Notes: generated from the letters alone by a model not told the origin. A stretch of DNA of 64,000 nt from an uncultured Acidimicrobiia bacterium (GCA_964516495.1 CAZEZF010000002.1:1231-65230), one strand, 5' to 3'. Counted from the first letter of the stretch, positions 3,452 through 54,900 are shown. A program made the numbers and translations.

Positions 3452-3580
3452 ATGTATTCCTTTCTGTCGTCTACCCTTGATAACACTATCGCCGTGTTTA
3501 TGTTCCCGAAAGCTGTGCAGATCCGGTAACCGGTTAGCCTGGGGTCAGCATCAGCGAAAGCAGCGGAGGCGTATCTCCAA

Positions 3581-4426
3581 ATGAGGGTCGGCGCGAACAT
3601 ATTCCTGACTGACATGTCCATCGAACCTGTTCAACTCGGGGAGGAGCTCGAGTCACGTGGATTCGAGTCCTTATGGGTGGCGGAGCACAGCCACATTCCT
3701 ACCAGCCGGAAGACGCCGTGGGGAGGGAGGAAGAACGCCCCGCCGCTTCCGGAGGAGTATTGGCGAACCCATGACTGTTTTGTGGCGTTGTCTGCGGTGG
3801 CGGCCACTACCGACCGTTTGAAGGTCGGTACGGGCATCACCCTGGTTGCACAGCATGATCCGATCTGGTTGGCCAAGCAGGTGGCATCCCTTGATGTGAT
3901 ATCCAAAGGCCGGTTCGAGTTCGGGATCGGATTCGGTTGGAACCGGGAGGAGATGCGCAACCACGGTGTGGACCCGGCCACGAGACACCAGCTGGTGGCG
4001 GAAAAGATCGGCCTGATGAAGGCCCTCTGGACCAAGGAGCGAGCCTCCTATGACGGCGACTTGGTGACTCTGAAGGAGAGTTGGGCTTGGCCCAAACCGA
4101 TACAAAAGCCGCATCCACCCATCTTCATGGGGAGCAGCGGAGGTCCTAAGGCTTTTGCAGCCACAGCGGCTTACTGTGATGGGTGGTTACCGGTGCGACC
4201 GGGAAACCTGGCCGAAGGGATCACCACCTTGCACGGCTATCTGGAGCGGGCCGGAAGAGATCCTTCGGAACTGGAGATTGCGGTTTACAACGCCGCGCCC
4301 GATCCCGACGCTTGGAAGACGTGGGAGCGACTAGGAGTTTCCCGTGTCATGATAGGACTTCCGCATGCTCCCGCCGAGGTGATTGTCCCGTTACTTGACG
4401 AGTATCAACACCTGATCGAGGTTTGA
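3581..4426 (+). CDS. LLM-class (luciferase-like) flavin/F420-dependent oxidoreductase
   Basis: ESLWVAEH..., TIM-barrel LLM family signature pattern, 281 aa. Confidence 0.65.
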   Translation: MRVGANIFLTDMSIEPVQLGEELESRGFESLWVAEHSHIPTSRKTPWGGRKNAPPLPEEYWRTHDCFVALSAVAATTDRLKVGTGITLVAQHDPIWLAKQVASLDVISKGRFEFGIGFGWNREEMRNHGVDPATRHQLVAEKIGLMKALWTKERASYDGDLVTLKESWAWPKPIQKPHPPIFMGSSGGPKAFAATAAYCDGWLPVRPGNLAEGITTLHGYLERAGRDPSELEIAVYNAAPDPDAWKTWERLGVSRVMIGLPHAPAEVIVPLLDEYQHLIEV

Positions 4427-4460: not shown

Positions 4461-5669
4461 TTGGCCTCCGGTTCAGACTCTCACTGTCCAGGAAGGCTCA
4501 TCCTCATGGGGTCGGGGGAGATGTCCGCCCCCTTGCTTGCCGCCCATCGTCTGGGCATTGAAGAGGCCGAGGCGCGGGAGGTGGTTGTCCTGGATACTCC
4601 GTTCGGGTTCCAGGAAAATGCCCCGCTCCTAGCCGACCGGCTGACCCGCTTCTTCCGCACCGGCTTCTCTGTGGATTCTACTGTTGCGTCGTACCGATCG
4701 GTTGGAGATGGAGAGGTCGCCGCCGAGCGGATGTTGACGAAGCTGAGGGGCGCCCGTTACGTGTTCGCCGGTCCCGGATCCCCTACTTACGCTCTCGGGG
4801 TATGGAAAGGTGTCAACTTGGAGCAGACCCTCCGGGAGCTGCTGCGAACGGGGGCGACGGTGACCTTCGCGTCTGCGGCGGCTCTCACTGCGGGGATCAA
4901 GACCCTGCCCGTGTACGAGATATACAAGGTTGGGGCGGCGCCGTACTGGCTTGAGGGTCTCGACTTGGCCGGCGCTCTGGGTCTTGCGGGTGTGGTCATT
5001 CCCCATTGGAACAACACGGAGGGTCAGGGATTCGATACCAGCCGTTGTTACATGGGTCGTCGCCGCTTCGGGCTGCTGCGTTCGATGCTTCCCCCAAGGG
5101 TTGGAGTGATCGGCTTGGATGAGCACACAGCCGGAGTGTTCGACTTCGGTAAGGGACAGTTGAGCGTTATCGGAACGGGTCGGGTGACCCTCAGCGGTAT
5201 CGATGACATGACCCTCCGGCATGGGGAGCGGATCGACTTGGCCACTGCCGCCGCATTCCTGGAGTCGAGCCCACCGACCCCGACGGCCGATCCGCCGCAA
5301 CCTGTACCCGGCCTTCGGGAATGTTTGGAGGAACGATCAGCCGAAGCCATTGCGTCGATCCTGCTCTCGATCGAATCTCGGGCAGCGGCGGGTTCGGGAT
5401 CAGCCAGGAGAGAATTACGATCGACGATACTGGAGATGGCGGACCTGGCCGCACGCGGGCTTGTGACTCGTCGTGAGTGGGTGGGGAAGTATGTGGATCT
5501 GCTTGTAGAGCAGCGATCCCGGCTGCGGGCTGAGAAACGCTGGGAGGAGGCGGATCACCTGAGAGCCGCGCTCGATTCCCTGGGTATCGCTCTCAGGGAT
5601 ACCCGGAACGGTACGGAATGGGCCTTCTCGGATGGAGGCATTCCGGATATCGGATCGAATAGGGACTGA
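4461..5669 (+). CDS. Fusion protein: peptidase S51 / class I glutamine-amidotransferase-like N-domain plus C-terminal domain resembling the CysRS/MshC C-terminal (DALR-2-like) anticodon-binding domain
   Basis: N-term LILMGSGEM...VFAGPGSPTYAL (S51/cyanophycinase-like); C-term RWEEADHLRAALDSLGIALRDTRNGTEW matches the ...DWxxADxIRDxLxxxGIxLxDTxxGTxW end of cysteinyl-tRNA synthetases. Confidence 0.4.
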   Translation: MASGSDSHCPGRLILMGSGEMSAPLLAAHRLGIEEAEAREVVVLDTPFGFQENAPLLADRLTRFFRTGFSVDSTVASYRSVGDGEVAAERMLTKLRGARYVFAGPGSPTYALGVWKGVNLEQTLRELLRTGATVTFASAAALTAGIKTLPVYEIYKVGAAPYWLEGLDLAGALGLAGVVIPHWNNTEGQGFDTSRCYMGRRRFGLLRSMLPPRVGVIGLDEHTAGVFDFGKGQLSVIGTGRVTLSGIDDMTLRHGERIDLATAAAFLESSPPTPTADPPQPVPGLRECLEERSAEAIASILLSIESRAAAGSGSARRELRSTILEMADLAARGLVTRREWVGKYVDLLVEQRSRLRAEKRWEEADHLRAALDSLGIALRDTRNGTEWAFSDGGIPDIGSNRD

Positions 5670-6061
5670 TTGCCGGGATGGGATTACAGATCGGCGCCTC
5701 TCCGGTCATGGCCAGAAAAGGGTTACGGTCGAAAACTAGTGTCCTGAATCTTTAGGTTCGCTTGGTTTTTATCCTGCAAGAAATTCGGATTGCGCACCGG
5801 GATTCGCCGTTGTCTCTCAGATCAGCCCAGATCAGTAGACGCCGCGGAGGACCGCGTGAAGGGATCAGAGTTCGTTCGAGGCAACCCCGTCGGGGGGTGT
5901 GGGAGGACTCGTCTCGACCAAAGGCGGCGCCGGTGGGGGAGGGCCCGCCGGGGAAGGGTTCATCCCCCGGAGCTTATCTGTAAACGCACCGGGCAACGTC
6001 TCTATGTCAAACCGACGCCGAGGCGGTACCATGGTGACCTACGCAGGACGGTTGGAGATCG

Positions 6062-6345: not shown

Positions 6346-6849
6346 CTACGGCAAATCCCAAACCGTGGAGCTATCTCCGGACGCCGCCACAGCAAGGGAT
6401 CGAGCGGAGTGCAGTACCGTCCCCACCAGGACCAGCGCCAGGCCGGCGTTCACGATCATCTCCGTTAGGAGTGGAACCGATCCGATCAGTTCCGGAATGG
6501 TCGTGGCGGTTAGGTAGAGGATCGAGAATATGGCCCAGGTGACCAGGGCGGAGCAGACAAAGAAGACCTGCTTTGAAGTGCCGCTCGTCTGTCCGAGCCC
6601 CTTGTAGATCAGGGGAACCAGCAGCGCCACCAGAGCGAACCCGAAGAGTTGCGCCGAGTTACGGTCTCCGGAGACGAGGAAGAATGCGAAGCCGATTACC
6701 ACCGCGCTGCTCGATGCCCAACTACCCGAGAAGGACCAGCGCATCGGTCCAACCGTACCCTTCCACCGCCCCTTCGAGTCGCTGACCGCGGCAAAGGTCA
6801 CCACAAAGGCCACCAATCCGCTGATGGTGATCATCGAGTTCACGTTCAT
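6346..6849 (-). CDS. Hypothetical integral membrane protein (about 4-5 TM segments)
   Basis: Hydrophobic helices throughout (ITISGLVAFVVTFAAV..., ALVALLVPLIY..., LALVLVGTVL). Confidence 0.4.
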   Translation of the reverse strand: MNVNSMITISGLVAFVVTFAAVSDSKGRWKGTVGPMRWSFSGSWASSSAVVIGFAFFLVSGDRNSAQLFGFALVALLVPLIYKGLGQTSGTSKQVFFVCSALVTWAIFSILYLTATTIPELIGSVPLLTEMIVNAGLALVLVGTVLHSARSLAVAASGDSSTVWDLP

Positions 6850-27664: not shown

Positions 27665-27959
27665 ATGCTATGTTGTCTTGAGCGGACAACCTTGACTCTC
27701 GATGATGATGTAGCGGCGGCTCTCAGGGAACGGACCCGGCTCACCGAACAGACATTCAAGCAGGTCGTCAATGACACCTTGCGGCGAGGCCTTTCCCCGG
27801 CGCAACCGGAGGCGAAAGCGGGTTACCGTCGTCAGGGTCCACCACGGTGGATTCCTATCTGGAGTCGATCCATTACGCCTGAACCAACTCAACGATTCGC
27901 TTGAGGCCGCCGGGTTCGCCGGCTCACCACTTTCACGGGATGTCCCGACCTTAGGGTGA
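27665..27959 (+). pseudogene. vapB: VapB-type (RHH, RTTLTLDDD) antitoxin gene with a frameshift near 27828; its 3' end is overlapped by a MITE
   Basis: ERTTLTLDDDVAAALRERTRLTEQTFKQVVNDTLRRGL in one frame continues as VVRVHHGGFLSGVDPLRLNQLNDSLEAAG in the +1 frame (track ORFs 27665 and 27771). Confidence 0.6.
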
Positions 27960-28085: not shown

Positions 28086-28403
28086 GTGGGGATTGCATGG
28101 ATCGTGGCGGCAGGGTTCGTGCGGTTACTCACCCACCCCAACGTTCTCAGTACCCCGGCGACACCGGAACACGCCGTTGACACCATGGCGGAGTGGTTCA
28201 TTTCGCCCGGCGTCATACCCCTGAACCCGGGAACGCGGCGCCTTACGATCTTCCGCCACATGCTTTCGGCCGCCGGAGTAGGCGGGAACCTTGTTACTGA
28301 CGCTCACATCGCTGCGCTCGCTATCAAGTATCAGGCCGAGGTCCACTCCAACGATCGCGATTTTATGCGCTTCCCCGGTTTGCGTTGGCGTAACCCTCTC
28401 TGA
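28086..28403 (+). pseudogene. vapC: VapC (PIN) toxin gene lacking its first ~35 codons (MxLVDANVLLYAV... missing)
   Basis: C-terminal two-thirds of PIN domain incl. GNLVTDAHIAALAIKYQAEVHSNDRDFMRFPGLRWRNPL; paralogue of 29151..29579. Confidence 0.65.
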
Positions 28404-28515: not shown

Positions 28516-28875
28516 TTACAGGCGTACCGCGGGCAGTCGCTTTAGTTCTTCCCGCTGAGGATCAACCACGAAGCCCCCGGATTCGAGTGCGGTTACGGCC
28601 AGTAGTGGTTCTACACCTTCCTCGCCGAAGACCACCATGTTCGCTACAAATACACCTTCGAACTCCAGCACCGCCGCGCTGATGTCATAGGTGACGATCC
28701 TCCCATCGGCCGTCTCGTAGTCGCGGTTGGAGATAGGCGCCAGCCCGATCGACTCCAGGTACGATCTCGGCGCTACCGAGTCGAATGCGCCGGTGTCGAC
28801 CAGGAACCTACCGGTCCATGACCGGTCGAGATCAGCCGGATTCCGAACTGTCACATCAACATGGGTCATCCCCAC
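28516..28875 (-). CDS. Retropepsin-like (clan AA) aspartic protease, copy 1
   Basis: Catalytic VDTGAFDS (D-T-G-A) motif, 119 aa; about 80 percent identical to 31157..31516 with co-duplicated 5' and 3' flanks. Confidence 0.7.
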   Translation of the reverse strand: MGMTHVDVTVRNPADLDRSWTGRFLVDTGAFDSVAPRSYLESIGLAPISNRDYETADGRIVTYDISAAVLEFEGVFVANMVVFGEEGVEPLLAVTALESGGFVVDPQREELKRLPAVRL

Positions 28876-29097: not shown

Positions 29098-29579
29098 ATG
29101 CGAACGACTGTGACGCTCGACGCGGACACCCAACAGATTGACAGGGGATCGTGAAGCTCGTCGATGCGAACGTACTTCTGTATGCTGTCAACGGCGACGC
29201 GCCCCACCACTGGACGCCGCCAAACGGTGGCTCGACGGCGCACTCAACGGCGGGGCGACGGTTGCCTTTGCCTGGGTCGTCTTACTGGCCTTCATCCGGC
29301 TGGCTACCGCGCGCAGCATCTTCACCCGACCACTACGACCGCAAGAGGCGATAGCGCAGGTAGTTGACTGGACATCGCAGCCAACCGCTGTTGTCGTGGA
29401 GCCCACCGTCCGGCATCCTCATCTCGTTGAACGGTTACCGGCGCCGAGCGGGCCGGGTGGGAACCTCGTCAACGACGCGCATCTGGCTGCGCTCTCCGTC
29501 GAACACCGGTGTGAAGTCGTAACCCTTCGATCGTGACTTCGCCAGATTCGAGGGCATCCGCACCCGACTTCCGGTTTGA
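29098..29579 (+). pseudogene. vapC: vapB remnant (18 codons, 29098-29154) plus vapC (PIN) with two frameshifts (about 29212 and 29524)
   Basis: VKLVDANVLLYAVNGDAPHH | DAAKRWLDGALNGGATVAFAWVVLLAFIRLAT...GNLVNDAHLAALSVEHRCEVVT | FDRDFARFEGI read in three frames; GTGA start/stop overlap with the MRTTVTLD remnant. Confidence 0.65.
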
Positions 29580-29804
29580 TCCCGACGACTCGAAAAGGCG
29601 CCATCAACATGTTGCGAAGGTCAGGTTCGAGGGCGTCCTCACGAAGAAGATAGAATCCTTAGCGTAGAGTAGTGAGAATTAGTAGTGTAGTAATGCGTGA
29701 ACTTATAGTGCTGACATAGCCTACGGTATCGGGTGACCAGTATCCGTATCGGGAGGACTACTGGGCCACCTGCGGCGCCGGGTAGTCGTTCAAGGGGACG
29801 AAGT

Positions 29805-31100
29805 ATGGCCGACACGGAGAAAACAACGTACCGCCCTCGGGTGGTCGATAAGGAGTTGGATTGGTTGCTGTCCGGACTTCCGGCTATCAGTATCAACGGT
29901 CCGCGCGCCGTGGGAAAAACCAGCACCGCCCTCCGGCGCGCTCGGACCATCCACAGCCTGGACGACCCCCAGACGTTGGCGCTGACCCTGGCCGATCCCG
30001 GCCGCTTGACAGCCGGGGAGCGTCCGGTGTTGATCGACGAATGGCAACTCTATCCCCCTGCGTGGGATCTGGTACGGCGCGCTGTGGACGCCGACCCTGC
30101 GCCGGGCGGGTTCATTCTCACCGGTTCCACGGCTCCGGAGACACCCCCGACGCACTCTGGCGCCGGACGCATCATCGTGTTGAGGATGAGGCCGATGGCA
30201 TTGAGCGAGCGCGGCCTTGAAGCGTCGACCGTGAGCCTGCGCGCCATGCTGGAAGGGAACCAACCCCCGGTGAAGGGACGGACCGGCGTAGGTCTGGCGG
30301 ACTACGCCCGGGAGATAGTCTCCGGAGGCTTTCCGGGCATGCAACACGCCGACCCCGAACTCCAGTCGGCTTACCTCGACGGCTATCTCGACATGGCTAT
30401 CGACCATGATGTAGCCCTGATGGGTTACCGGGTTCGCCGGCCGGTTATGATGCGACGCTGGCTGGCCGCTTACGCCGCGGCGACTGCAACCACCGCGACT
30501 TACGAGGCCATTCTGGATGCGGCCACTCCCGGAGAGGGCCAGAAACCGGCGAAGACCACGACGGCGGCCTATCGCGACCTACTGGAGGCGATGTGGTTGG
30601 TGGAGCCGGTCTCCGCCTGGCAACCGCGTGGCAATCCCCTACGACGACTCAAGCGGGGGCCGAAACATCATCTGGCCGACCCTTGCCTCGCCGCCCGGCT
30701 GATGGGAGTAACGGAAGCCTCGTTGGTCTCGCCCCTTCCGAAGGAGAGGGCGCATCCTGCTCCGTTTGCCAAAGGTCCTCTGCTGGGCGCATTGTTCGAA
30801 TCGCTGGTTACCCAGAGCGTTCGCGTCTACGCCCAATCTGCCCGGGCGCGGGTGGGCCACCTGCGAACCTGGAATGACGTTCGCGAAGTCGATCTGATTG
30901 TCGAGCGAGAGGACAAGGTGCTCGCAATCGAGGTCAAACTCGTTGCCGCCCCCACTCGTTCCGACACCGCCCACCTACGTTGGCTCGCTGACCAGATGGG
31001 CTCTGAGGTCTGCGATACCATGATCGTGACCACCGGCCGGCACGCCTATCGGGATCAGGACGGAGTAGCCGTGGTTCCCGCCGCGTTGCTAGGTCCCTGA
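29805..31100 (+). CDS. COG1373-type AAA+ ATPase (AAA_14 + DUF4143 architecture)
   Basis: Walker A GPRAVGKTS, Walker B VLIDEWQ, C-terminal DUF4143-like region. Confidence 0.6.
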   Translation: MADTEKTTYRPRVVDKELDWLLSGLPAISINGPRAVGKTSTALRRARTIHSLDDPQTLALTLADPGRLTAGERPVLIDEWQLYPPAWDLVRRAVDADPAPGGFILTGSTAPETPPTHSGAGRIIVLRMRPMALSERGLEASTVSLRAMLEGNQPPVKGRTGVGLADYAREIVSGGFPGMQHADPELQSAYLDGYLDMAIDHDVALMGYRVRRPVMMRRWLAAYAAATATTATYEAILDAATPGEGQKPAKTTTAAYRDLLEAMWLVEPVSAWQPRGNPLRRLKRGPKHHLADPCLAARLMGVTEASLVSPLPKERAHPAPFAKGPLLGALFESLVTQSVRVYAQSARARVGHLRTWNDVREVDLIVEREDKVLAIEVKLVAAPTRSDTAHLRWLADQMGSEVCDTMIVTTGRHAYRDQDGVAVVPAALLGP

Positions 31101-31156
31101 ACTCTCGTCCTTCCTATACAGTCTCCGAGTTGATTCGAGTCGGACCGGGGATCTAC

Positions 31157-31516
31157 CTACAAGCGCACCGCGGGGAGTCGGGTGAGTTCTTCCCTCCGGG
31201 GGTCTACTCGGAATCCACCGGATTCGAGTGCGGTGACGGCGAGGAGCGGTTCCACGCCCTCCTCGCCGAAAACCACGGTGTTTCCGACCAGGACTCCCTC
31301 GAACTCCAGTTCCGCCACGCCGATGGCATAGGTTACGGAACTTCCGTCCGCGAGTTCGTACTCACGGGTGGATCTGGGCTTGATTCCTATCGCCTCGAGA
31401 ACCGATCGCGGTATTACCGAGTCGTAGGCGCCGGTGTCCACCAGGAACCGGCCTGTCCATGACCGACCGAGATCAGCCGGATTCCGAACCGTCACATCAA
31501 CGTGAGTCATCCCCAC
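31157..31516 (-). CDS. Retropepsin-like (clan AA) aspartic protease, copy 2
   Basis: VDTGAYDS motif; 119 aa; duplicated with promoter/RBS region (31517-31595) and 3' flank. Confidence 0.7.
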   Translation of the reverse strand: MGMTHVDVTVRNPADLGRSWTGRFLVDTGAYDSVIPRSVLEAIGIKPRSTREYELADGSSVTYAIGVAELEFEGVLVGNTVVFGEEGVEPLLAVTALESGGFRVDPRREELTRLPAVRL

Positions 31517-31573
31517 AGGTTAACCTCCTTGGCTCCGAAACGTAGTAGTCCATAATAGGGCACTGACATACGA

Positions 31574-34500
31574 TTACAAGGGCACGGAGGCGGGGCGGTT
31601 AGAGATGGTCGGTTCGACGGCCAGCCTTCTGCGCCACTCGACAATCTCTTCCTCATCGAAGTCGAGGGCCATCGCAGCGGCCCGGTCGATGATCCGGCGC
31701 GCCTGACATTCTTGACCTAGCGACAGGGGGAGCATCTCGAGGTCGGCGGCCTGCTCCCATGCCTCCGCGAGGTGTGACCAGGCAGAGTTGTCGGGTCTGG
31801 GTACTCCGACCTGCCGTAGCTGCGCCAACGACCACGATGGATACGTCAGTTTCTTCGTGCGGAGGTTGAGTAGCATGAGTCGGACGGGAGTGGAGTTCCA
31901 CCATGCCACCAACGCCTTGCCTTCCGGTTTCCCGGAGACCGCAACCGGGATCCATCCTGACCCGATGGACGGTGTCGGCGACCAGAGAGCCGTTAGACGC
32001 CCGCTGATAGTGTCGTAACGCTCGGTGACTAGAGTGTGACTGCGCATCTCCCAATACCGACGAGCTAGGTGTGACTTGTCGGCCTTGGGATAGCCTTGAT
32101 GGTCTGGCGTACCCGCCATCCGCCGGTGGATCTTGGCGGCGATTGACCAGAACAGGGGAACTGTCTCCGGGTCTACCTCAGCGGACTTACGATAGGTATC
32201 GCGTATTCCCCGCCCTGATGGGCCGATCCAGTGGTGAAGGCCGATCGGTTCCAAGTTTGGCGACAGGTTGATTAGGTAGGTTGCCTCGGCAAGTTGACCG
32301 TCGAACCACTGCACTGGCGCCCAGTCGCCGGCTTGGACGCGGTCGGCCGGCCAGAACGTGCGGCTGCCCCACTCGGTAGCGTTCCTTTGTGCGATGGCGT
32401 CTGCTGCTGCAAGGGTTTCTTCCGGGCTGGTTGGCATTCTGCGTAACGCGAAGAACTCGGTCTCGGGGGGGGGGTGTTGATTCGACGCGCTATCAGCAGG
32501 CACTCGTGTATGCCGGTGTTCTCGGAGAAGTTTATGCGTTTGGGGTCGTGCGAGGTGATGATCCGTTCGATGTGGAACCGCTTCGCCAAGAAAACACGCT
32601 CTTCCACACCCGACGACCCGATGCAACCTGTCGCCGGAACAACTTTCGCGAGCGTTCCCGCTGTGGTCCCATTCCTGTCAGATGGCGAATCCGTACCCTC
32701 TTCACCCGCGTACGGATCCCGGAGGAGGCGGTCGGCGAGGGGAGTGAAGAAGGTGCTGACGCTGTTGACGTTGACAACCTGTCCGGCTTCATGGTCAGAT
32801 TGGGATAGATGATCGCGCAGGCTCAACTCGTACTGCTGCATCTGTCTCACCTGTTCAGAGGTGTATTGGCGGCCTCGCTTCACGTTGTTGGTGAAAGGTG
32901 GGTTCATGATGACCAGGTCGAGGTTGCCGGTCGGTAGCTCGGTCTCCTCATCGCTCACCTGGGTAGCGCCAAGTCCCAGCCGGGTTGCCAGAGGACGTAC
33001 CAGGCTTGCCAACGAGTCCGCATCTTCGGCGGCGCCGAGAATCTCCAACGAACCGGCTTTGACCTCACCGTCCGGTTGCGGACCGTGTTTCAGGGTGAAT
33101 AAGTTTATCCGTCGGTAGTCAACCGTCGGGGCGCCCAAGGTCAGGTTGCAGGCGGCCATCTGCACGGCGTAGCGGTTGATGTCAAGGCCGTAGATCACGT
33201 TCTCGACCAACGCCTTGTGGAACCCGGCCATGTCGTCCTCGCTCATCTGACGAGCTTCTCGTACACGGGACTTCATCACTTGCAGGGCGGCCATGAGCAG
33301 CGTTCCGGTGCCGCAGGCCGGATCCATGATTCTCAGTCGATTTACCTGTTCGGTGTCGTTCCATTCAACAAAGTCCTCGCTGATGGCGAGCCGGGCCAGT
33401 AGTAGCGCCGAGATGTTGTTGGTGTAATACGAGCCGGTCGCAGCGGCGTTGGGCAGGATGCGGTGGTAGAGCGGTCCGGCATGGTCGTAACCCAACTCGC
33501 TGAGCGAGGTGGCCGTTCGGTTGGCGCACTCGGCGAGTATGCATAGGGCGTGGCTTACGAAGCGCCGCCGGGGTAGGGTGGCGAGAACTGCCACGGCGGG
33601 TTCGAACACCGGTTTGTAGTCCTGTTCCAGGATTTTCTCCCAGTCGCGGACCAACGCCTCGGCGGGGTACTCGTCGCCCGACACCCGGGCCAGGTCGTCC
33701 AGCCAACCCATGTGCGCCACATCGGCCAGCCTACGGTGTAATAGGCAGGCGTTGGCGACCAGGAGTGCGGCGATCTTGCAGATATCGCGCTCGTTCCGGT
33801 CAACGCTCAAGCCCATGGCGGTTGCCAGGTCGGTAGCCAGGTCTCCCTCCTTGAAGAGCCCGGCCGCTCGCCGTACCGCATGGGTGATCTCGTCGGCTAC
33901 CAGCAGACCAGGTGTTCCCAGACCGGAGGAGGCCACCACATGAGCGAAGATGCCGCGTCCGACCTCCTTGAGATCAAGCGTCAACTGATCCGGGATGTAG
34001 TCCTCTTCGGATGACGGGTCGTCTCCGGTCGGTTCCTGGACGGAGACGAAGCGAAGCGGGTCCTCCGCGAGACGCCCGTCGTGGGACTGAAGCGCCCGCA
34101 ATACCTGGCCGACGGCCTTGTAGCCCTGGCTGCCTTCAGAGAGCGCGGTGGTCAGGTCCTCGCCGGGGGAGATCGGGATCGGCACGATTACATACCCGAG
34201 CCGCTTGCCCTCGCTACGCCGCATAACCCGACCAACCGCCTGGACGATGTCCACCTGGCTGTCCCTCGGCTCCATAAAGACAATGGCGTTCAGCGACGGA
34301 ACGTCGACACCTTCGCTGAAGAGCTTCACGTTGCACAGAACCCGGGCGGTGTCGCCGTCGCCGGCTCGACGAAGCTTCCGAAGGGCCTGGTTGCGCTGGA
34401 AGGCGCTGTTGGCGCCGTCGAGATGTTTGGCGTCGATCTTCAAGGAGGACTCGGCGTCGCGTCGACCCCGGCGTACCCGGCGGGTAATGAGAGATCTGAG

Positions 34501-35985
34501 TTCGGGATGCGCCAGAGCTTCGGCGAAGAACTTGGAGCGTTTGATCGAGTTGGCAAAAGCGATGGTGCGGTGTAGTCGCCCCGGGCGCTCCAACGATGCG
34601 CCTTCCGCCACGCCGTTGATAGCCAGGGCGGTTCCCAACAGGCGGGTCGCTTCGGTGCTGGTGACGGTCAGGGGCTTTCCCCGCCCCGTGCTCAGCTGTT
34701 CGCCGAGGGAGACCAGGCGCCTCCACATGCCCTCAGGGACGTCCCGGTCGCGGACGCCGAGCACGATCACCCGGTAGTCGGAGAGCATCTCGTGGTTAAC
34801 GGCGTCTTTGAAGGACAGGAGGTCCAGTTCCGGTCCGTACACCTCCAAGTCGGACATGTCCACCGTCTCGATACCCCGGGCTTTGAGTGAACCGCGAGAC
34901 CTGGCCGTGTAGATACGCGGCGTGGCGGTCATATAGAGGCGTTTGGAAGCTGACAGCAGGTCATCGTGATGCACCGCCTGGAACCCGTTGAAGTCCTTGA
35001 TCTGTGAGCCGGCCCGATCCACGCCGGTGGTGCGATGCGCCTCGTCGCACAGCACCAGATCGAAGGAGGGGGTCTCGTGTTTCTGCTGGGCCTCGGTCAG
35101 GCGCCGGAGTGACTGGTAGGTGGAGAACACCACCCGAGTGTTGCTGGTTTCCGGTTTTGGGGCCATCAAATCGGCCAACTTCTTGGGATCGGAAGTGACC
35201 GCGCATTCGAGTTCGGAGAGCTTGATCTCGTTTCCTTCTCCACGACCTCCGGCGGAACGGTCCGAGCAGACGACCCGGCAGTCGAGAGGTCGGAGGGTGT
35301 GCCGTAGCCACTCCCGCCTGGCCTGCGAGACGAGGGCGATGCTCGGGGCGAGGAACAGGATTCGACCACCGTCGGGAACCACCTGCTCCGCTATCCGGAG
35401 TGCGGTGAACGTCTTGCCCGTGCCGCACGCCATGGTGAGGCGGCCCCGGTGATGGTATTGCAGACCCTTCACGACTTTGTCGATCGCCTCCTGCTGGCGC
35501 GGCCACGGTCGGCGTACCGGGCGACCGTCGCCCGGTACGGTGAGCGGATCGTTCTCATGCCGCAGGAAGTCGATCCGTCGAACGGGTGGCTCAGCCCCTT
35601 CGACAGCCGCCTCGGCTGCCTTTGTCCAATCACTGGTGGCGATAATCCAACGCATGGAGTAGACCGACTGCTGGGTGAAACCAAGGAAAGAGTCGATTGC
35701 CGGCTTCGAGACGCGGGCCTTCTCGGAGTAGCACTTGCATTGAATGGCGATCCATCCGTCGCTTCGATGCCGGGCTACCAGGTCGACTCCCCAGTCGCGA
35801 CCGTCGTGTCCGGTCAACTCCTCCCGTTCCGGCCAGTCCGCCCATCGGTGGACCTTCTCGATCTCGTATTCAGGGTTTGCCAAGAGAACCTGGCTGACAA
35901 GGTTCTCGAACCATCGACCCTTCTCACTCTCGTCACGGCTTTCCCGTCGGATCCGATCCAGCGCCTCGCCAATCGTCGAAACCAT
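31574..35985 (-). pseudogene. Type ISP-like single-polypeptide restriction-modification enzyme (Mrr-cat nuclease - SF2 helicase-like ATPase - gamma-class N6-adenine MTase - TRD), reading frame broken at a C10 homopolymer (phase-variable, pseudogene or sequencing error)
   Basis: Mrr-like D...QCK (GVDLVAR...IAIQCKCY); Walker A MACGTGKT and DEAH box LVLCDEAHR; MTase motif I MDPACGTGTLL and motif IV VIMNPPFTNN; 1237-aa frame degenerates into low complexity after INTPPP while the overlapping 350-aa frame (HPPPETEFFALRRMPTSPEE...) continues as a plausible TRD. Confidence 0.7.
32465..32474. repeat. G10 (C10 on coding strand) homopolymer tract at the frameshift point of the RM gene
   Basis: tctcGGGGGGGGGGtgttga; both overlapping frames translate it as PPP. 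Confidence 0.9.
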
Positions 35986-36184
35986 GTTCTGCCTCCCTGC
36001 CTTCTCGGCAGCGGGTCTCCCTGTACCCGCCCGAGATATGCCCGCCCGAGATTTACCTATAACCGTACGTGATCCGCGATCCAGGCGCCTTCCCGTTCAG
36101 GGTCGGATGGATCACCGCCTCTATTGCGCGACGACGGTTGGAATGTGCAGCGAGGTTGATTCCCGGTCGCCCCGATACAAGGTC

Positions 36185-36345
36185 GAGTTCCCGAAAGGGG
36201 TGACTGGCTACTTGAATGTTTCCGCTAGATTGTCCTCCTACGTCTGCGAAAGACCGATGGAAGGTAGGGCTGTGGTTCATTTTGATGCGTCAGCGAGCCT
36301 TCGTTGCTCCTCCGGCGATTACATCTCCACTCGGGGATCCATCAC
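36185..36345 (+). repeat. Repeat B1: partial duplicate of promoter and 5' end of the 37569 gene (contains a 54-codon remnant ORF 36257..36421)
   Basis: About 80 percent identity to 37497..37650 incl. ttgaatgtttccgctagattgtcctcctacgtctgcgaa and ATGGAAGGTAGG start. Confidence 0.7.
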
Positions 36346-36481
36346 CCCCACCGGCTTGCGACGGTATGTCTATTGGCACATGGAGCATCCGCTTGAGGCT
36401 CGCACCGCTATTGGATGCTGATGTCGGTTCGACTGCGCGGGTCTCGATCCCCGTCCGTCGGGTCATTACCCGATTTCCCTG

Positions 36482-37450
36482 ATGCCTCCCGCGGTCCGGA
36501 TGGGCTTCCAGGTATGGGCACAGCATGTGTCCTGGGCGGAACTGATGGGCGCGGCCACATCGATAGAGGGCCGCGGCTTCGACAGCCTGTGGAGCAACGA
36601 TCACTTCTTTCCGATCGCAGGCTATGAACTCGACGTCAACCAGCGCCTGGAAGGTCCGATCTTCGAGGGATGGACGGTCCTGTCCGGTTTCGTCGCCCAT
36701 ACCAACGCCGTCCGGGTGGGATGTATGGTCTCAGCGGCGGGTTTTCGCAACCCCGGCTTGCTGGTGAAGATGGCAACGAGTCTGGATCATGCGTCGGGTG
36801 GCCGCCTGGTGTTGGGTATCGGCGCCGGATGGTACGAACGGGATCACATAGCGTTCGGGCTCGATCACCCGACAGTCGGAGAGCGTCTCGATCGATTGGA
36901 TGAGACGGTCGTGGCTATCAGAAGGTTGCTCGACGGCGAGACGGTGTCGATGGAGGGTAGATGGGTTCGGATGGTGAAAGCGCGCAACGATCCCCCTCCG
37001 CTTCAGAAGAACATGCCGTTGCTGGTCGGAGGCAGCGGCGAGCGGCGTAGTCTACCGTTAGCGGCTCGGTTCGCCGACTGGTGGAACGGTGAGGGGACCC
37101 CTGAGGAGATCGCCCGCAAGAACGTGCTCCTTGATCGGATGACCGAAGCTGCCGGGAGACGTCCGGCCGACCTCATCAGGACAGTGGGGTTACCCAATCC
37201 GCTAATCCGCAGTTCCCGGGCCGAAGCGGCGGAGGTCGCGGCCGCAATCCTGGCGAGACATGGCATGCCCGCCGGACAGGCGTGTGCTGCGGCCGTCAGG
37301 TCACCCTTGGTCGGGCCCTCGGATCAGGTCGCCGCCTATCTCCGCCGGTACGCGGAAGTCGGCGTAGCCGAAGTGGTCTTCGACTGGCCCTCTCCCTTCG
37401 ATGTGGAAACCCTTGACGCACTGGCGATCCTTCGCCGGGAAATGGGTTGA
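36482..37450 (+). CDS. LLM-class flavin/F420-dependent oxidoreductase
   Basis: FDSLWSNDHFF..., LVLGIGAGW motifs of luciferase-like monooxygenase family. Confidence 0.65.
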   Translation: MPPAVRMGFQVWAQHVSWAELMGAATSIEGRGFDSLWSNDHFFPIAGYELDVNQRLEGPIFEGWTVLSGFVAHTNAVRVGCMVSAAGFRNPGLLVKMATSLDHASGGRLVLGIGAGWYERDHIAFGLDHPTVGERLDRLDETVVAIRRLLDGETVSMEGRWVRMVKARNDPPPLQKNMPLLVGGSGERRSLPLAARFADWWNGEGTPEEIARKNVLLDRMTEAAGRRPADLIRTVGLPNPLIRSSRAEAAEVAAAILARHGMPAGQACAAAVRSPLVGPSDQVAAYLRRYAEVGVAEVVFDWPSPFDVETLDALAILRREMG

Positions 37451-53806: not shown

Positions 53807-53909
53807 AGGAGGGTGCCGGGAAACCCCCGGCTTGGCCCGACATCCGATGGTAAACTCCCTGGTCAGCGGACGGAGGGCCAATCTAATCACCCGTTTTCAG
53901 CACCCTCCT
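53807..53909 (-). repeat. Repeat family C copy 1: about 100-nt structured element closed by GGAGGGUGC/GCACCCUCC pairing, starting at the stop codon of the deaminase gene
   Basis: About 80 percent identical to 63083..63181; internal hairpins (ccggggguuucccgg etc.). Confidence 0.55.
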
Positions 53910-54900
53910 AGGAACTCCAGTATTCCTGCTGGATGGTGGAGGATTCGGCGACCAGGTGGGGTCCCCTCACCTCTATATGGCGCTGACCGGTACCCAGGAT
54001 CTCGCGGCAACCTACACCGCGCATGGTCGGGTTGAGGGGGTTGGCGCCGGTGTATTCCAACAGGTGGTGTTCGCTCATGCCGTACACCAGCCGGTTGAGG
54101 CCGCCCCAGTACATGGATCCGCTGCACATGGCGCAGGGTTCGCAGCTGGTGTAGAGAGTGGCGTCCGCGATCTGTTCGGAAGTGAGTTGGTCCACCGCCA
54201 TTCGCATCAGGTTGGTCTCGGCGTGGTTGAGAGGGCTTTTGCCGGTGATGTCGGAGTTCTCCGCCTCAAGGAGGATGTTTCCATCCGGGTCGGCCAGCAG
54301 CGCCCCGAAAGGCAGGTTTCCGTTGGCCACGGAGCGTTCCGCGACCTTGATCGCCCTCCGCAGCAGTCGCTCATCCATCTCGCTCAGGTCGCCGGTTACC
54401 GGTCGGGGGCCGCCTTCGGCGAAGAAATCGATGTGTACCGCCGACGCCTCCTCGATAAGGTGTGGTCCGCTCACCTCTATATGGCGCTGACCGCTGTCGA
54501 AGATGTTGCGACATCCCACGCCCCGCATCGTGGCCGTGCCGGGATCGCCTCCGGTTATTTCGAGAAGGTCCAACTCGCTCATGGCATAGACCATGCGGTT
54601 GAGCCCGCCCCAGTACATGGCGCCCGAGCACATGGCGCAGGGTTCGCAGCTGGTGTAAAGGGTGGCCTCGGCGATCTGTTCCGGGGTGAGGGTGGTAACC
54701 GCCAGGTTCATGAGGTTGGTCTCCGCATGGTTGAGCGTGTTGCGCCCGGTTACCCCGGTGTTCTCCGCCTCGAGCAGGATGTTTCCGTCACGGTCGGCCA
54801 TGATCGCCCCAAAGGGCATGTTCCCGTTGGATACCGATCTGGCCGAAACCTCGATCGCCTTTCGCAGGAGCCGTTCGTCATGTGAGCTGAGTACTGTCAT
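53908..54900 (-). CDS. Tandem-domain nucleoside/nucleotide deaminase (two CDA-fold TadA/guanine-deaminase-like domains)
   Basis: HAETNLM ... CEPCAMCSG zinc motifs present twice; the two halves are about 75 percent identical (504-bp internal tandem repeat). Confidence 0.7.
   Translation of the reverse strand: MTVLSSHDERLLRKAIEVSARSVSNGNMPFGAIMADRDGNILLEAENTGVTGRNTLNHAETNLMNLAVTTLTPEQIAEATLYTSCEPCAMCSGAMYWGGLNRMVYAMSELDLLEITGGDPGTATMRGVGCRNIFDSGQRHIEVSGPHLIEEASAVHIDFFAEGGPRPVTGDLSEMDERLLRRAIKVAERSVANGNLPFGALLADPDGNILLEAENSDITGKSPLNHAETNLMRMAVDQLTSEQIADATLYTSCEPCAMCSGSMYWGGLNRLVYGMSEHHLLEYTGANPLNPTMRGVGCREILGTGQRHIEVRGPHLVAESSTIQQEYWSS

Follow-up and report, generated by a model that had tools for sequence, protein, structure and literature searches.

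A candidate slipped-strand switch in a single-polypeptide restriction-modification gene of an uncultured Acidimicrobiia bacterium

Repeat-driven ON/OFF switching of restriction-modification (RM) enzymes is well established for Type I, Type III and Type IIG systems, mostly in host-adapted pathogens, and surveys of REBASE report that simple-sequence repeats are common in RM genes, with tract lengths that vary by strain (PMC5909438, PMC7383803). In Campylobacter jejuni, the phase-variable Type IIG gene cj0031 (cj0031/cj0032) carries a G9/G10 tract at nt 2573 of 3732, where slippage produces two annotated open reading frames (ORFs), and both activities are predicted to be lost together (PMC4889913). 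A Type ISP gene of Helicobacter pylori (HP0667-HP0669) is frameshifted into several ORFs, and its repair gave an active N6-methyladenine methyltransferase, M.HpyAXVIII (PMC3936762). Reversible frameshifts at G/C homopolymers are also described in a high-GC actinobacterium, for example at the 7C tract of Mycobacterium tuberculosis glpK (PMC10334774; bioRxiv 10.1101/717272). In the literature searched, there was no report of a repeat-based switch in the Type ISP enzymes LlaGI or LlaBIII, nor of repeat switching for the Type ISP architecture or in uncultured marine or sponge-associated bacteria. Here, we describe a minus-strand gene at positions 31574-35985 of a 64,000-nt stretch of DNA from an uncultured Acidimicrobiia bacterium (GCA_964516495.1, CAZEZF010000002.1:1231-65230; the whole stretch is referred to as the window), which encodes a Type ISP-like RM polypeptide interrupted by a run of ten cytosines. 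A repeat-switched single-polypeptide RM enzyme is a known kind of system; what is notable in this one is the Type ISP architecture, the habitat, and the apparently repeated, independent gain of repeats in the family.

The tract is a G10 run on the plus strand (32465-32474), and thus C10 on the coding strand, where it is read as T-P-P-P codons at nt 3512 of 4413. It splits a gene of 1470 codons into a 1237-aa ORF (ORF A) and a 296-codon continuation. The split had been reported in an earlier note on this DNA that was generated by a model, and the coordinates given there for both frames were confirmed. Across the tract ORF A reads ...IHECLLIARRINTPPP, followed by 63 low-complexity codons and a stop; from the tract onward the second frame reads ETEFFALRRMPTSPEE... 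and continues for 296 codons to a stop at 31574. The parts of the gene are as follows.

31574..35985, minus strand: whole interrupted gene, 1470 codons if the tract is C11 (repair simulation, tblastn with P0001)
32465..32474, minus strand: C10 homopolymer, the proposed slipped-strand switch; C10 would be OFF, C11 or C8 would be ON
32272..35985, minus strand: ORF A, 1237 aa, the same as database protein P0002; nuclease, ATPase and methyltransferase motifs plus 63 out-of-frame codons
32272..32464, minus strand: out-of-frame tail of ORF A, 63 low-complexity codons (RPSSSRYAEC...) and a stop
31574..32464, minus strand: post-tract coding part, a recognition-domain-like C-terminal domain of 296 codons and a stop, beginning ETEFFALRRMP
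31574..32626, minus strand: ORF overlapping ORF A in another frame, with good protein sequence from the tract on

When other tract lengths were simulated, the reading frame was restored only by C11 (1470 aa) or C8 (1469 aa), that is, by one base more or two fewer, and C9, C10 and C12 gave truncated products of 1265, 1237 and 1266 aa. The proposal in the earlier note that a change of one base in either direction would restore about 1470 residues holds for the added base, but not for the removed one. A tblastn comparison with the intact homologue P0001 placed its residues 1-1158 in a first frame and 1091-1451 in a second, found zero internal stops and, together with the repair simulation, identified the tract as the single lesion over the 1470 codons. 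The post-tract part is shifted by one base relative to ORF A. It shares 52-63% identity with the corresponding region of homologues, and a portion of it is annotated by NCBI as a separate 246-aa protein (P0121). We also considered whether the overlapping frame (ORF B) might be a separate gene starting at TTG 32626, and ruled this out; its first 50 codons overlap ORF A off-frame and are unconserved.

No other homopolymer in the window (GC 61.4%) reaches 8 bases; after the tract, the longest are three runs of 7 bases. G/C runs of 5, 6 and 7 bases number 91, 14 and 3, a drop of about 5-fold per base added, and extrapolation of these counts gives an expectation of ∼0.03 runs of 10 or more per window. 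A pure base-composition model would allow ∼0.5 such runs, so that the tract by itself is unusual yet possible. We judged it to be non-random because its position is common to homologues. A need for polyproline does not explain a pure C run, since CCC accounts for 28-31% of the proline codons in the window and since one relative has a GA repeat in place of the cytosines.

To place the gene among its relatives, database searches were made with the repaired C-terminal half, which returned more than 1300 relatives. More than 100 of the best of these are 1430-1455 aa long, with 99-100% query coverage and 46-68% identity, and the repaired length is therefore the normal length for the family. A genome scan restricted by the generic pattern MACGTGKT supplied 22 loci, and a scan of JGI metagenomes supplied 3, of which 1 was useful (loci and database proteins are given L and P numbers below). 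Named genome records with the family are metagenome-assembled genomes (MAGs) of Acidimicrobiia (including Candidatus Poriferisodalis), Gemmatimonadota, Acidobacteriota, Nitrosopumilaceae and Proteobacteria. The nearest relatives of the window gene are in Acidimicrobiia MAGs, and, from names (Candidatus Poriferisodalis) and sample labels, many of the hosts appear to be sponge-associated. The family consensus at the tract site is ...CRRxxxxxPPTEFVSLRxMP. Ten family loci, including the window, carry poly-C at the same loop codon, the assembled tracts ranging from 8 to 23 bases, and an eleventh carries (GA)∼24.

Window: C10, out of frame, no further lesion
L002: C9, out of frame, no further lesion (partial contig)
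L011: C8 then GCC, out of frame, no further lesion
L019 (Bryobacterales): C15, out of frame, no further lesion
L035: C12, out of frame, no further lesion
L001: C15, out of frame, with TGG to TGA
L003: C11, in frame, with TGG to TGA
L004: C16, in frame, with TAG and an N-terminal deletion
L031 (P0027): C11, in frame, intact, 1455 aa
L032: C23, no phase; the contig begins 17 nt ahead of the tract
L033 (TARA metagenome contig): (GA)∼24, no phase; the contig begins inside the repeat, ∼6 codons ahead of the TEF-equivalent motif

Thus, five of the eleven loci are OFF through the tract alone, one is OFF and also has a nonsense codon, one is ON and intact, two are ON with a nonsense codon, and two have no phase. 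The stop codons lie at 2039 in L001 and 9127 in L003, each replacing a conserved Trp, and at 9973 in L004. Alleles without any other lesion are found in both states, OFF in the window, L002, L011, L019 and L035, and ON in L031. The same-site repeat loci are 64-74% identical to the window at the nucleotide level, and a neighbour-joining tree distributes the repeat-bearing alleles over four or more lineages, the tract-less P0001 and P0003 being nested in the clade of the window gene. The shift needed to restore the frame differs as well: one more base is required in the window, L002, L011, L019 and L020, and one base less in L001, L021, L028 and L035 (L020, L021 and L028 have their tract at a second site, described below).

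The post-tract ORF was compared between L002 and L011, both of which are OFF, giving a synonymous divergence (dS) of 0.30, a nonsynonymous divergence (dN) of 0.077 and a dN/dS of 0.26. This was the only usable pair, comparisons of the window with its relatives being saturated (dS 1.4-2.3) and uninformative. The post-tract domain is under purifying selection. The same two loci, which come from near-identical strains, differ in the tract region. When L002 (1-3744) is aligned with L011 (3456-7292), the sequences are 99.9% identical over 1613 nt and then 94%, the drop extending from ∼200 nt upstream of the tract to past the gene end, which suggests a recombination breakpoint that may have swapped the C-terminal (specificity) module.

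Repeats were also found at two other places in the family. A sister Acidimicrobiia clade has no mid-gene tract, and has poly-C within a conserved N-terminal leader (MSETxPPQVEADADEI...LPFAG-PPP-...VTVGEVIERIR) that has an ATG of its own and a Shine-Dalgarno-like GGAGG.

L021, 2872: leader C9
L017, 2835: leader C10
L028, 1837: leader C11
L020, 2841: leader C19

The leader and the gene body are in different frames in L020, L021 and L028; in L017 the leader ORF is degenerate and no phase was assigned. The third site is a loop of the methyltransferase (HGPQPDG..KAGSLE), where L026 (Longimicrobiales) has a G27 run followed by AGGGGGG (5813-5839) exactly at a frame change; the run may be genuine, as a poly-G/poly-Gly tract, or may have arisen in assembly. 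Two of the leader-tract loci have in addition a second break near residue 1225-1255, with two close frame changes (L017 6600-7060, L020 6780-6920). In L017 it contains ∼300 nt of extra, partly repeated sequence, including five copies of an octamer, (ACAACCGA)x5, at 6703-6744. About ten database fragments (P0167, P0169, P0170, P0173, P0175-P0178, P0181 and others) begin just past this break with MSYxAFWS..., and the break could be a further variable site or an inserted element.

Fragments are common at the mid-gene site as well. When the post-tract domain alone was used as the protein query, 72 proteins were found, among them P0121 (the second half of the window gene), and all of them are short C-terminal fragments, many on Mb-sized contigs. 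At least 16 of the 72 begin at the invariant Met of LRRMPxTPEEA right after the tract site. In the window this Met (...ALRRMPTSPEE) is at 32440-32442; the Met-Pro eight residues past the tract is invariant in the family, and gene callers use the Met as the start of many orphan C-terminal fragments.

The earlier note had offered a phase-variation switch, a dead gene and a sequencing error as three readings of the interrupted gene, and the comparison of the eleven loci favors the first. We consider it probable that the tract is a slipped-strand phase-variation switch, with the window allele in the OFF state, because different repeats recur at the same tolerant loop, two further repeat sites exist and both shift directions are seen, and because otherwise intact ON and OFF alleles occur together with purifying selection downstream.

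The domain order proposed earlier, an Mrr-type nuclease, a DEAH superfamily 2 (SF2) translocase and a gamma-class N6-adenine methyltransferase, was borne out, with all of the motifs found in that order.

35560..35865, minus strand: Mrr-type PD-(D/E)xK nuclease domain, aa 41-142 (Pfam Mrr_cat_2, E 8e-26)
35734-35796, minus strand: D...QCK motif, aa 64-84, aligning with the D...QAK segment of LlaBIII
34915..35502, minus strand: SF2 ATPase N-lobe (ResIII/DEAD), aa 162-357 (Pfam, LlaBIII/LlaGI alignment)
35410-35433, minus strand: Walker A MACGTGKT, aa 185-192
35035-35046, minus strand: DEAH, aa 314-317
34216..34452, minus strand: SF2 ATPase C-lobe (Helicase_C), aa 512-590
34216-34242, minus strand: motif VI QAVGRVMRR, aa 582-590
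33448..34068, minus strand: mostly helical connector between ATPase and methyltransferase, aa 640-846 (model of homologue P0005)
32475..33447, minus strand: gamma-class N6-adenine methyltransferase core, aa 847-1170 (Pfam; fold matches BpuSI, CamA, BrxX)
33304-33324, minus strand: methyltransferase motif I DPACGTG, aa 888-894
32893-32904, minus strand: methyltransferase motif IV NPPF, aa 1028-1031

In phmmer searches against solved structures, residues 4-640 matched LlaBIII (4xqk, E 8e-88) and residues 163-639 matched LlaGI (5ffj, E 3e-75), with the nuclease D...Q-x-K, Walker A, DEAH and motif VI conserved; TATP and QxxGRxxR are also present in the motor. In contrast, the C-terminal 830 residues matched LlaBIII in sequence solely at methyltransferase motif I, and only positions 2-643 of the PADLOC model for the LlaGI type (∼1646 positions) could be aligned. 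The ∼200-aa connector (aa 640-846) is placed as the Type ISP coupler would be, and no sequence similarity to the LlaBIII coupler was detected. On the repaired protein, Pfam assigned N6_Mtase, MmeI_Mtase and Eco57I at aa 847-1043. The C-terminal half was modelled through P0005, an 842-aa homologue covering exactly that half, using AlphaFold2 with 43 sequences (predicted local distance difference score, pLDDT, 83; predicted template modelling score, pTM, 0.83). Foldseek searches of the PDB with this model returned BpuSI (Type IIG), CamA, BrxX/PglX, M.BseCI and DrdV at the top, and LlaBIII at rank 50 (E 5e-10). In the model the tract site is in a loop between beta-strands E533-540 and E549-554, ∼140 residues past NPPF, which would put the tract on the border between methyltransferase core and C-terminal recognition domain, or slightly inside it. 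The earlier assignment to a Type ISP-like class stands, the architecture and the motor-nuclease being those of Type ISP enzymes. The predicted fold of the methyltransferase and recognition module places it in a broader IIG/IIL/BREX-like group, outside the LlaGI sequence subfamily. From the homology of its N-terminal 640 residues, the enzyme would be predicted to translocate away from an asymmetric site, driven by ATP, and to cut when two converging enzymes collide.

These comparisons suggest a model in which a stand-alone, single-polypeptide, ATP-dependent RM gene has its expression gated by a hypermutable poly-C in a surface loop. In the ON state (C11 or C8), the 1470-aa enzyme would recognize an asymmetric site through its C-terminal domain, as expected from homology with LlaGI and LlaBIII, and methylate one adenine; on unmodified DNA it would instead translocate, fuelled by ATP, until the N-terminal Mrr-type nuclease cut where two enzymes converge. 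In the OFF state (C10, as in the window), the frame would be lost, with a stop 63 codons on, and the product would keep all catalytic motifs and lack the last 296 residues. Restriction and modification would then disappear together, making the OFF state safe for the cell. Slipped-strand mispairing during replication would alter the tract length and flip the state, giving a mixed population of ON and OFF cells that may hedge between phage attack on one side and self-damage or blocked DNA uptake on the other. The switching rate, the enzyme activity, the recognition site and the adaptive benefit belong to the part of this model that we infer.

Several observations weigh against a switch and were considered together with the possibility that the gene has been permanently inactivated, the poly-C being a mutational weak point and the window allele being in early decay. 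Reversibility is something we infer, and tract-length heterogeneity within a population was not seen, there being no read-level data. Of the nine mid-site poly-C alleles with an assignable phase, only three are in frame, and two of these carry a nonsense codon (L003, with the same TGG to TGA change as L001, and L004, with its TAG and N-terminal deletion). L001 combines a frameshift with a nonsense codon, leaving L031 as the single verified tract-bearing allele that is fully intact. Part of the family is decaying. There is no excess of in-frame tracts, and an in-frame share of about one third or less is what would be expected if the tract of a dead gene drifted at random. The gene showed no significant enrichment over its flanks in homopolymers of at least 8 bases when the unbiased genome sample was counted (7 against 5, p = 0.11); with all loci included the counts were 14 and 6 (p = 7e-4), but that set is biased by the choice of loci and was not relied on. 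Permanent loss is further favored by the second break in L017 and L020, by an insertion sequence (IS) element in the same methyltransferase/recognition-domain linker of a low-GC homologue (L034 3555-4919; DDE_Tnp_1, terminal inverted repeats ...TAGATTCTATGCGTAATC...), by the numerous database matches on Mb-sized contigs that are N-terminally short, and by the H. pylori precedent of Type ISP genes as frameshifted remnants (PMC3936762). However, no lesion other than the tract is present in the 1470 codons of the window gene, and a repeat has been maintained, or has arisen again, at the same codon in four or more lineages and in two repeat chemistries. Neutral decay would be expected to disrupt a pure C run (an interrupted form would be, for example, CCCACCGCCC) at 26-36% nucleotide divergence, and neither the dN/dS past the tract in two OFF alleles nor the intact in-frame L031 is readily explained by a dead gene. 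We therefore regard permanent inactivation of the window gene as unlikely.

A sequencing or assembly error, in which the true tract is C11 or mixed and one base was dropped from the deposited consensus, seems less probable still. Of the six out-of-frame alleles with a mid-site tract, four (window, L002, L011, L019) are exactly one C short, which is the usual direction of homopolymer under-calling, several loci are on contigs whose names (ctg..._4x, _8.13x) indicate low-coverage long reads, and assemblies do fail at the tract, since the contigs of L032 and L033 end in it. The same organism was assembled with a clean C15 (L001 5352-5366) and with C17 (L036), the latter in a record (GCA_026708015.1, JAPOVT010000007.1) whose region 4664-4853 also includes artefact runs of G17 and G46, a scaffold gap of 10 N and an error-ridden duplicated segment. 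Because long tracts are misassembled, phase calls at ∼15 bases or more are unreliable, and this too counts against the switch. Nonetheless, runs of C8 to C10 are normally called correctly in short-read consensus, and L011 (C8) and L002 (C9) are still out of frame (both would be short-read assemblies judging by their names, that of L011 having the SPAdes NODE pattern and a coverage of 62). In addition, L001, L035, L021 and L028 deviate in the opposite direction.

Transcription tends to slip on long homopolymers, and for A/T runs this has been established in IS elements and endosymbionts. Programmed recoding, in which ribosomes slipping by -1, or RNA polymerase stuttering within the C run, would yield both truncated and full-length protein from a fixed C10, gains from this and from the perfect re-pairing in the -1 frame that C CCC CCC allows tRNA-Pro, yet we find it very improbable, as relatives require both shift directions and have very different tract lengths, L033 has a GA repeat at the same site, and no conserved downstream stimulatory structure was noticed, although none was looked for. 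Low-level slippage could nevertheless leak some full-length protein beside DNA-level switching.

The recurrence of repeats raises a broader and more tentative idea, which we think has less than an even chance of being right: that the gene acts as a 'switch socket', with unrelated lineages of several phyla (Acidimicrobiia, Bryobacterales of the Acidobacteriota, Longimicrobiales and others, in marine and sponge-associated microbes) having convergently installed different hypermutable repeats in its tolerant loops. These would be poly-C and GA in the mid loop, poly-C in the N-terminal leader and poly-G in the methyltransferase loop.

The gene lies within a stretch of ∼10 kb (26.8-36 kb) that contains small toxin-antitoxin-like genes, an AAA_14/DUF4143 ATPase gene (29733-31100) and two paralogous 119-aa retropepsin-like genes, and that is flanked by monooxygenase/reductase genes and a luciferase-like monooxygenase gene. 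No GC anomaly was found across 26-39 kb and no tRNA is adjacent. A plasmid origin was considered and rejected, megablast of 31000-36500 against PLSDB giving zero matches. The neighbors of homologues are unrelated, often of defence type (UvrD/PD-(D/E)xK, Vsr with a C5 methylase, AAA_15/21, SocA), and the enzyme therefore looks stand-alone, with no conserved partner gene. The retropepsin-like gene that the earlier note placed downstream (31157..31516, minus strand) is real and encodes a 119-aa Asp_protease_2 protein, but a functional link to the RM gene was rejected; it has a paralogue 2.6 kb away, and the flanks of 35 relatives contained one distant match (L018).

The two retropepsin-like genes (28516-28875 and 31157-31516, both minus strand) have a DTGA motif, are 81% identical in protein and 72% over 300 nt, and bracket the ATPase gene and a PIN-like remnant. 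On the plus strand, an RHH-like ORF (27665-27904) and a PIN/VapC-like ORF (28086-28403) form a pair, and a second PIN-like gene appears to be divided over two overlapping frames, 29151-29354 (MKLVDANVLLYAV...) and 29138-29536 (...NLVNDAHLAALSVEH...), and is probably a frameshifted toxin gene. Farther away, a 330-aa ORF (53908-54900, minus strand) consists of two tandem similar segments (53952-54390 and 54458-54900) and looks like a tandem duplication or fusion. In L011 and L002 the RM homologue is flanked by one dCMP-deaminase-family gene, to which both segments are 71-77% identical in nucleotide sequence, a match that hints at a related, Acidimicrobiia-like lineage as the source of the window. 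The one tRNA of the window, tRNA-Ile (GAT) at 3863-3934 on the plus strand, is inside a 281-aa ORF (3581-4426) that is probably not a gene.

If the window gene and its relatives are indeed switched, many RM genes called 'split' or 'pseudogene' in MAGs would be switchable genes (there are at least 72 fragments in this family), defence repertoires derived from MAG annotation would be under-counted, and the places where contigs break at such tracts would be biologically informative. The family combines three repeat sites with two repeat chemistries and offers a test set for selection on mutability in environmental communities. The 'switch socket', if true, would imply strong second-order selection for stochastic restriction, and possibly for methylation-based regulation, in free-living or symbiotic communities.

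Compared with the systems described at the outset, the window gene resembles LlaGI and LlaBIII in being a single polypeptide with the same order of nuclease, ATPase, connector, methyltransferase and recognition domain, and differs in that its protein is ∼100 residues shorter. The Type III mod and Type I hsdM/hsdS genes of phasevarions also have repeats inside RM genes and stochastic ON/OFF expression, but these are multi-subunit systems whose repeats are usually near the 5' end of mod or hsdM/hsdS, and their regulatory role has been demonstrated in pathogens. In the H. pylori remnants, the frameshifts are stated to be 'not due to sequence repeats' (PMC3936762), and the methyltransferase and specificity fragment is active alone, in contrast to the window, where the break parts the methyltransferase core from the specificity domain. 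M. tuberculosis glpK is similar in showing that homopolymer switches work beyond the classic mucosal pathogens, although metabolic rather than defence genes are affected there and the tracts are shorter. The closest precedent for the proposed switch is cj0031. It lacks the SF2 motor and the Mrr nuclease, its host is a pathogen that is low in GC and host-adapted, and its switching was measured by GeneScan of colonies, as opposed to the high-GC uncultured hosts considered here, for which switching is proposed from comparison. Like the window gene, however, it is a single-polypeptide RM gene with a G/C homopolymer ∼70-80% along the ORF and conserved domains on either side, and in both families the tract is a feature of some alleles, cj0031 having it in only a subset, some of them interrupted, and the window family likewise including tract-less alleles.

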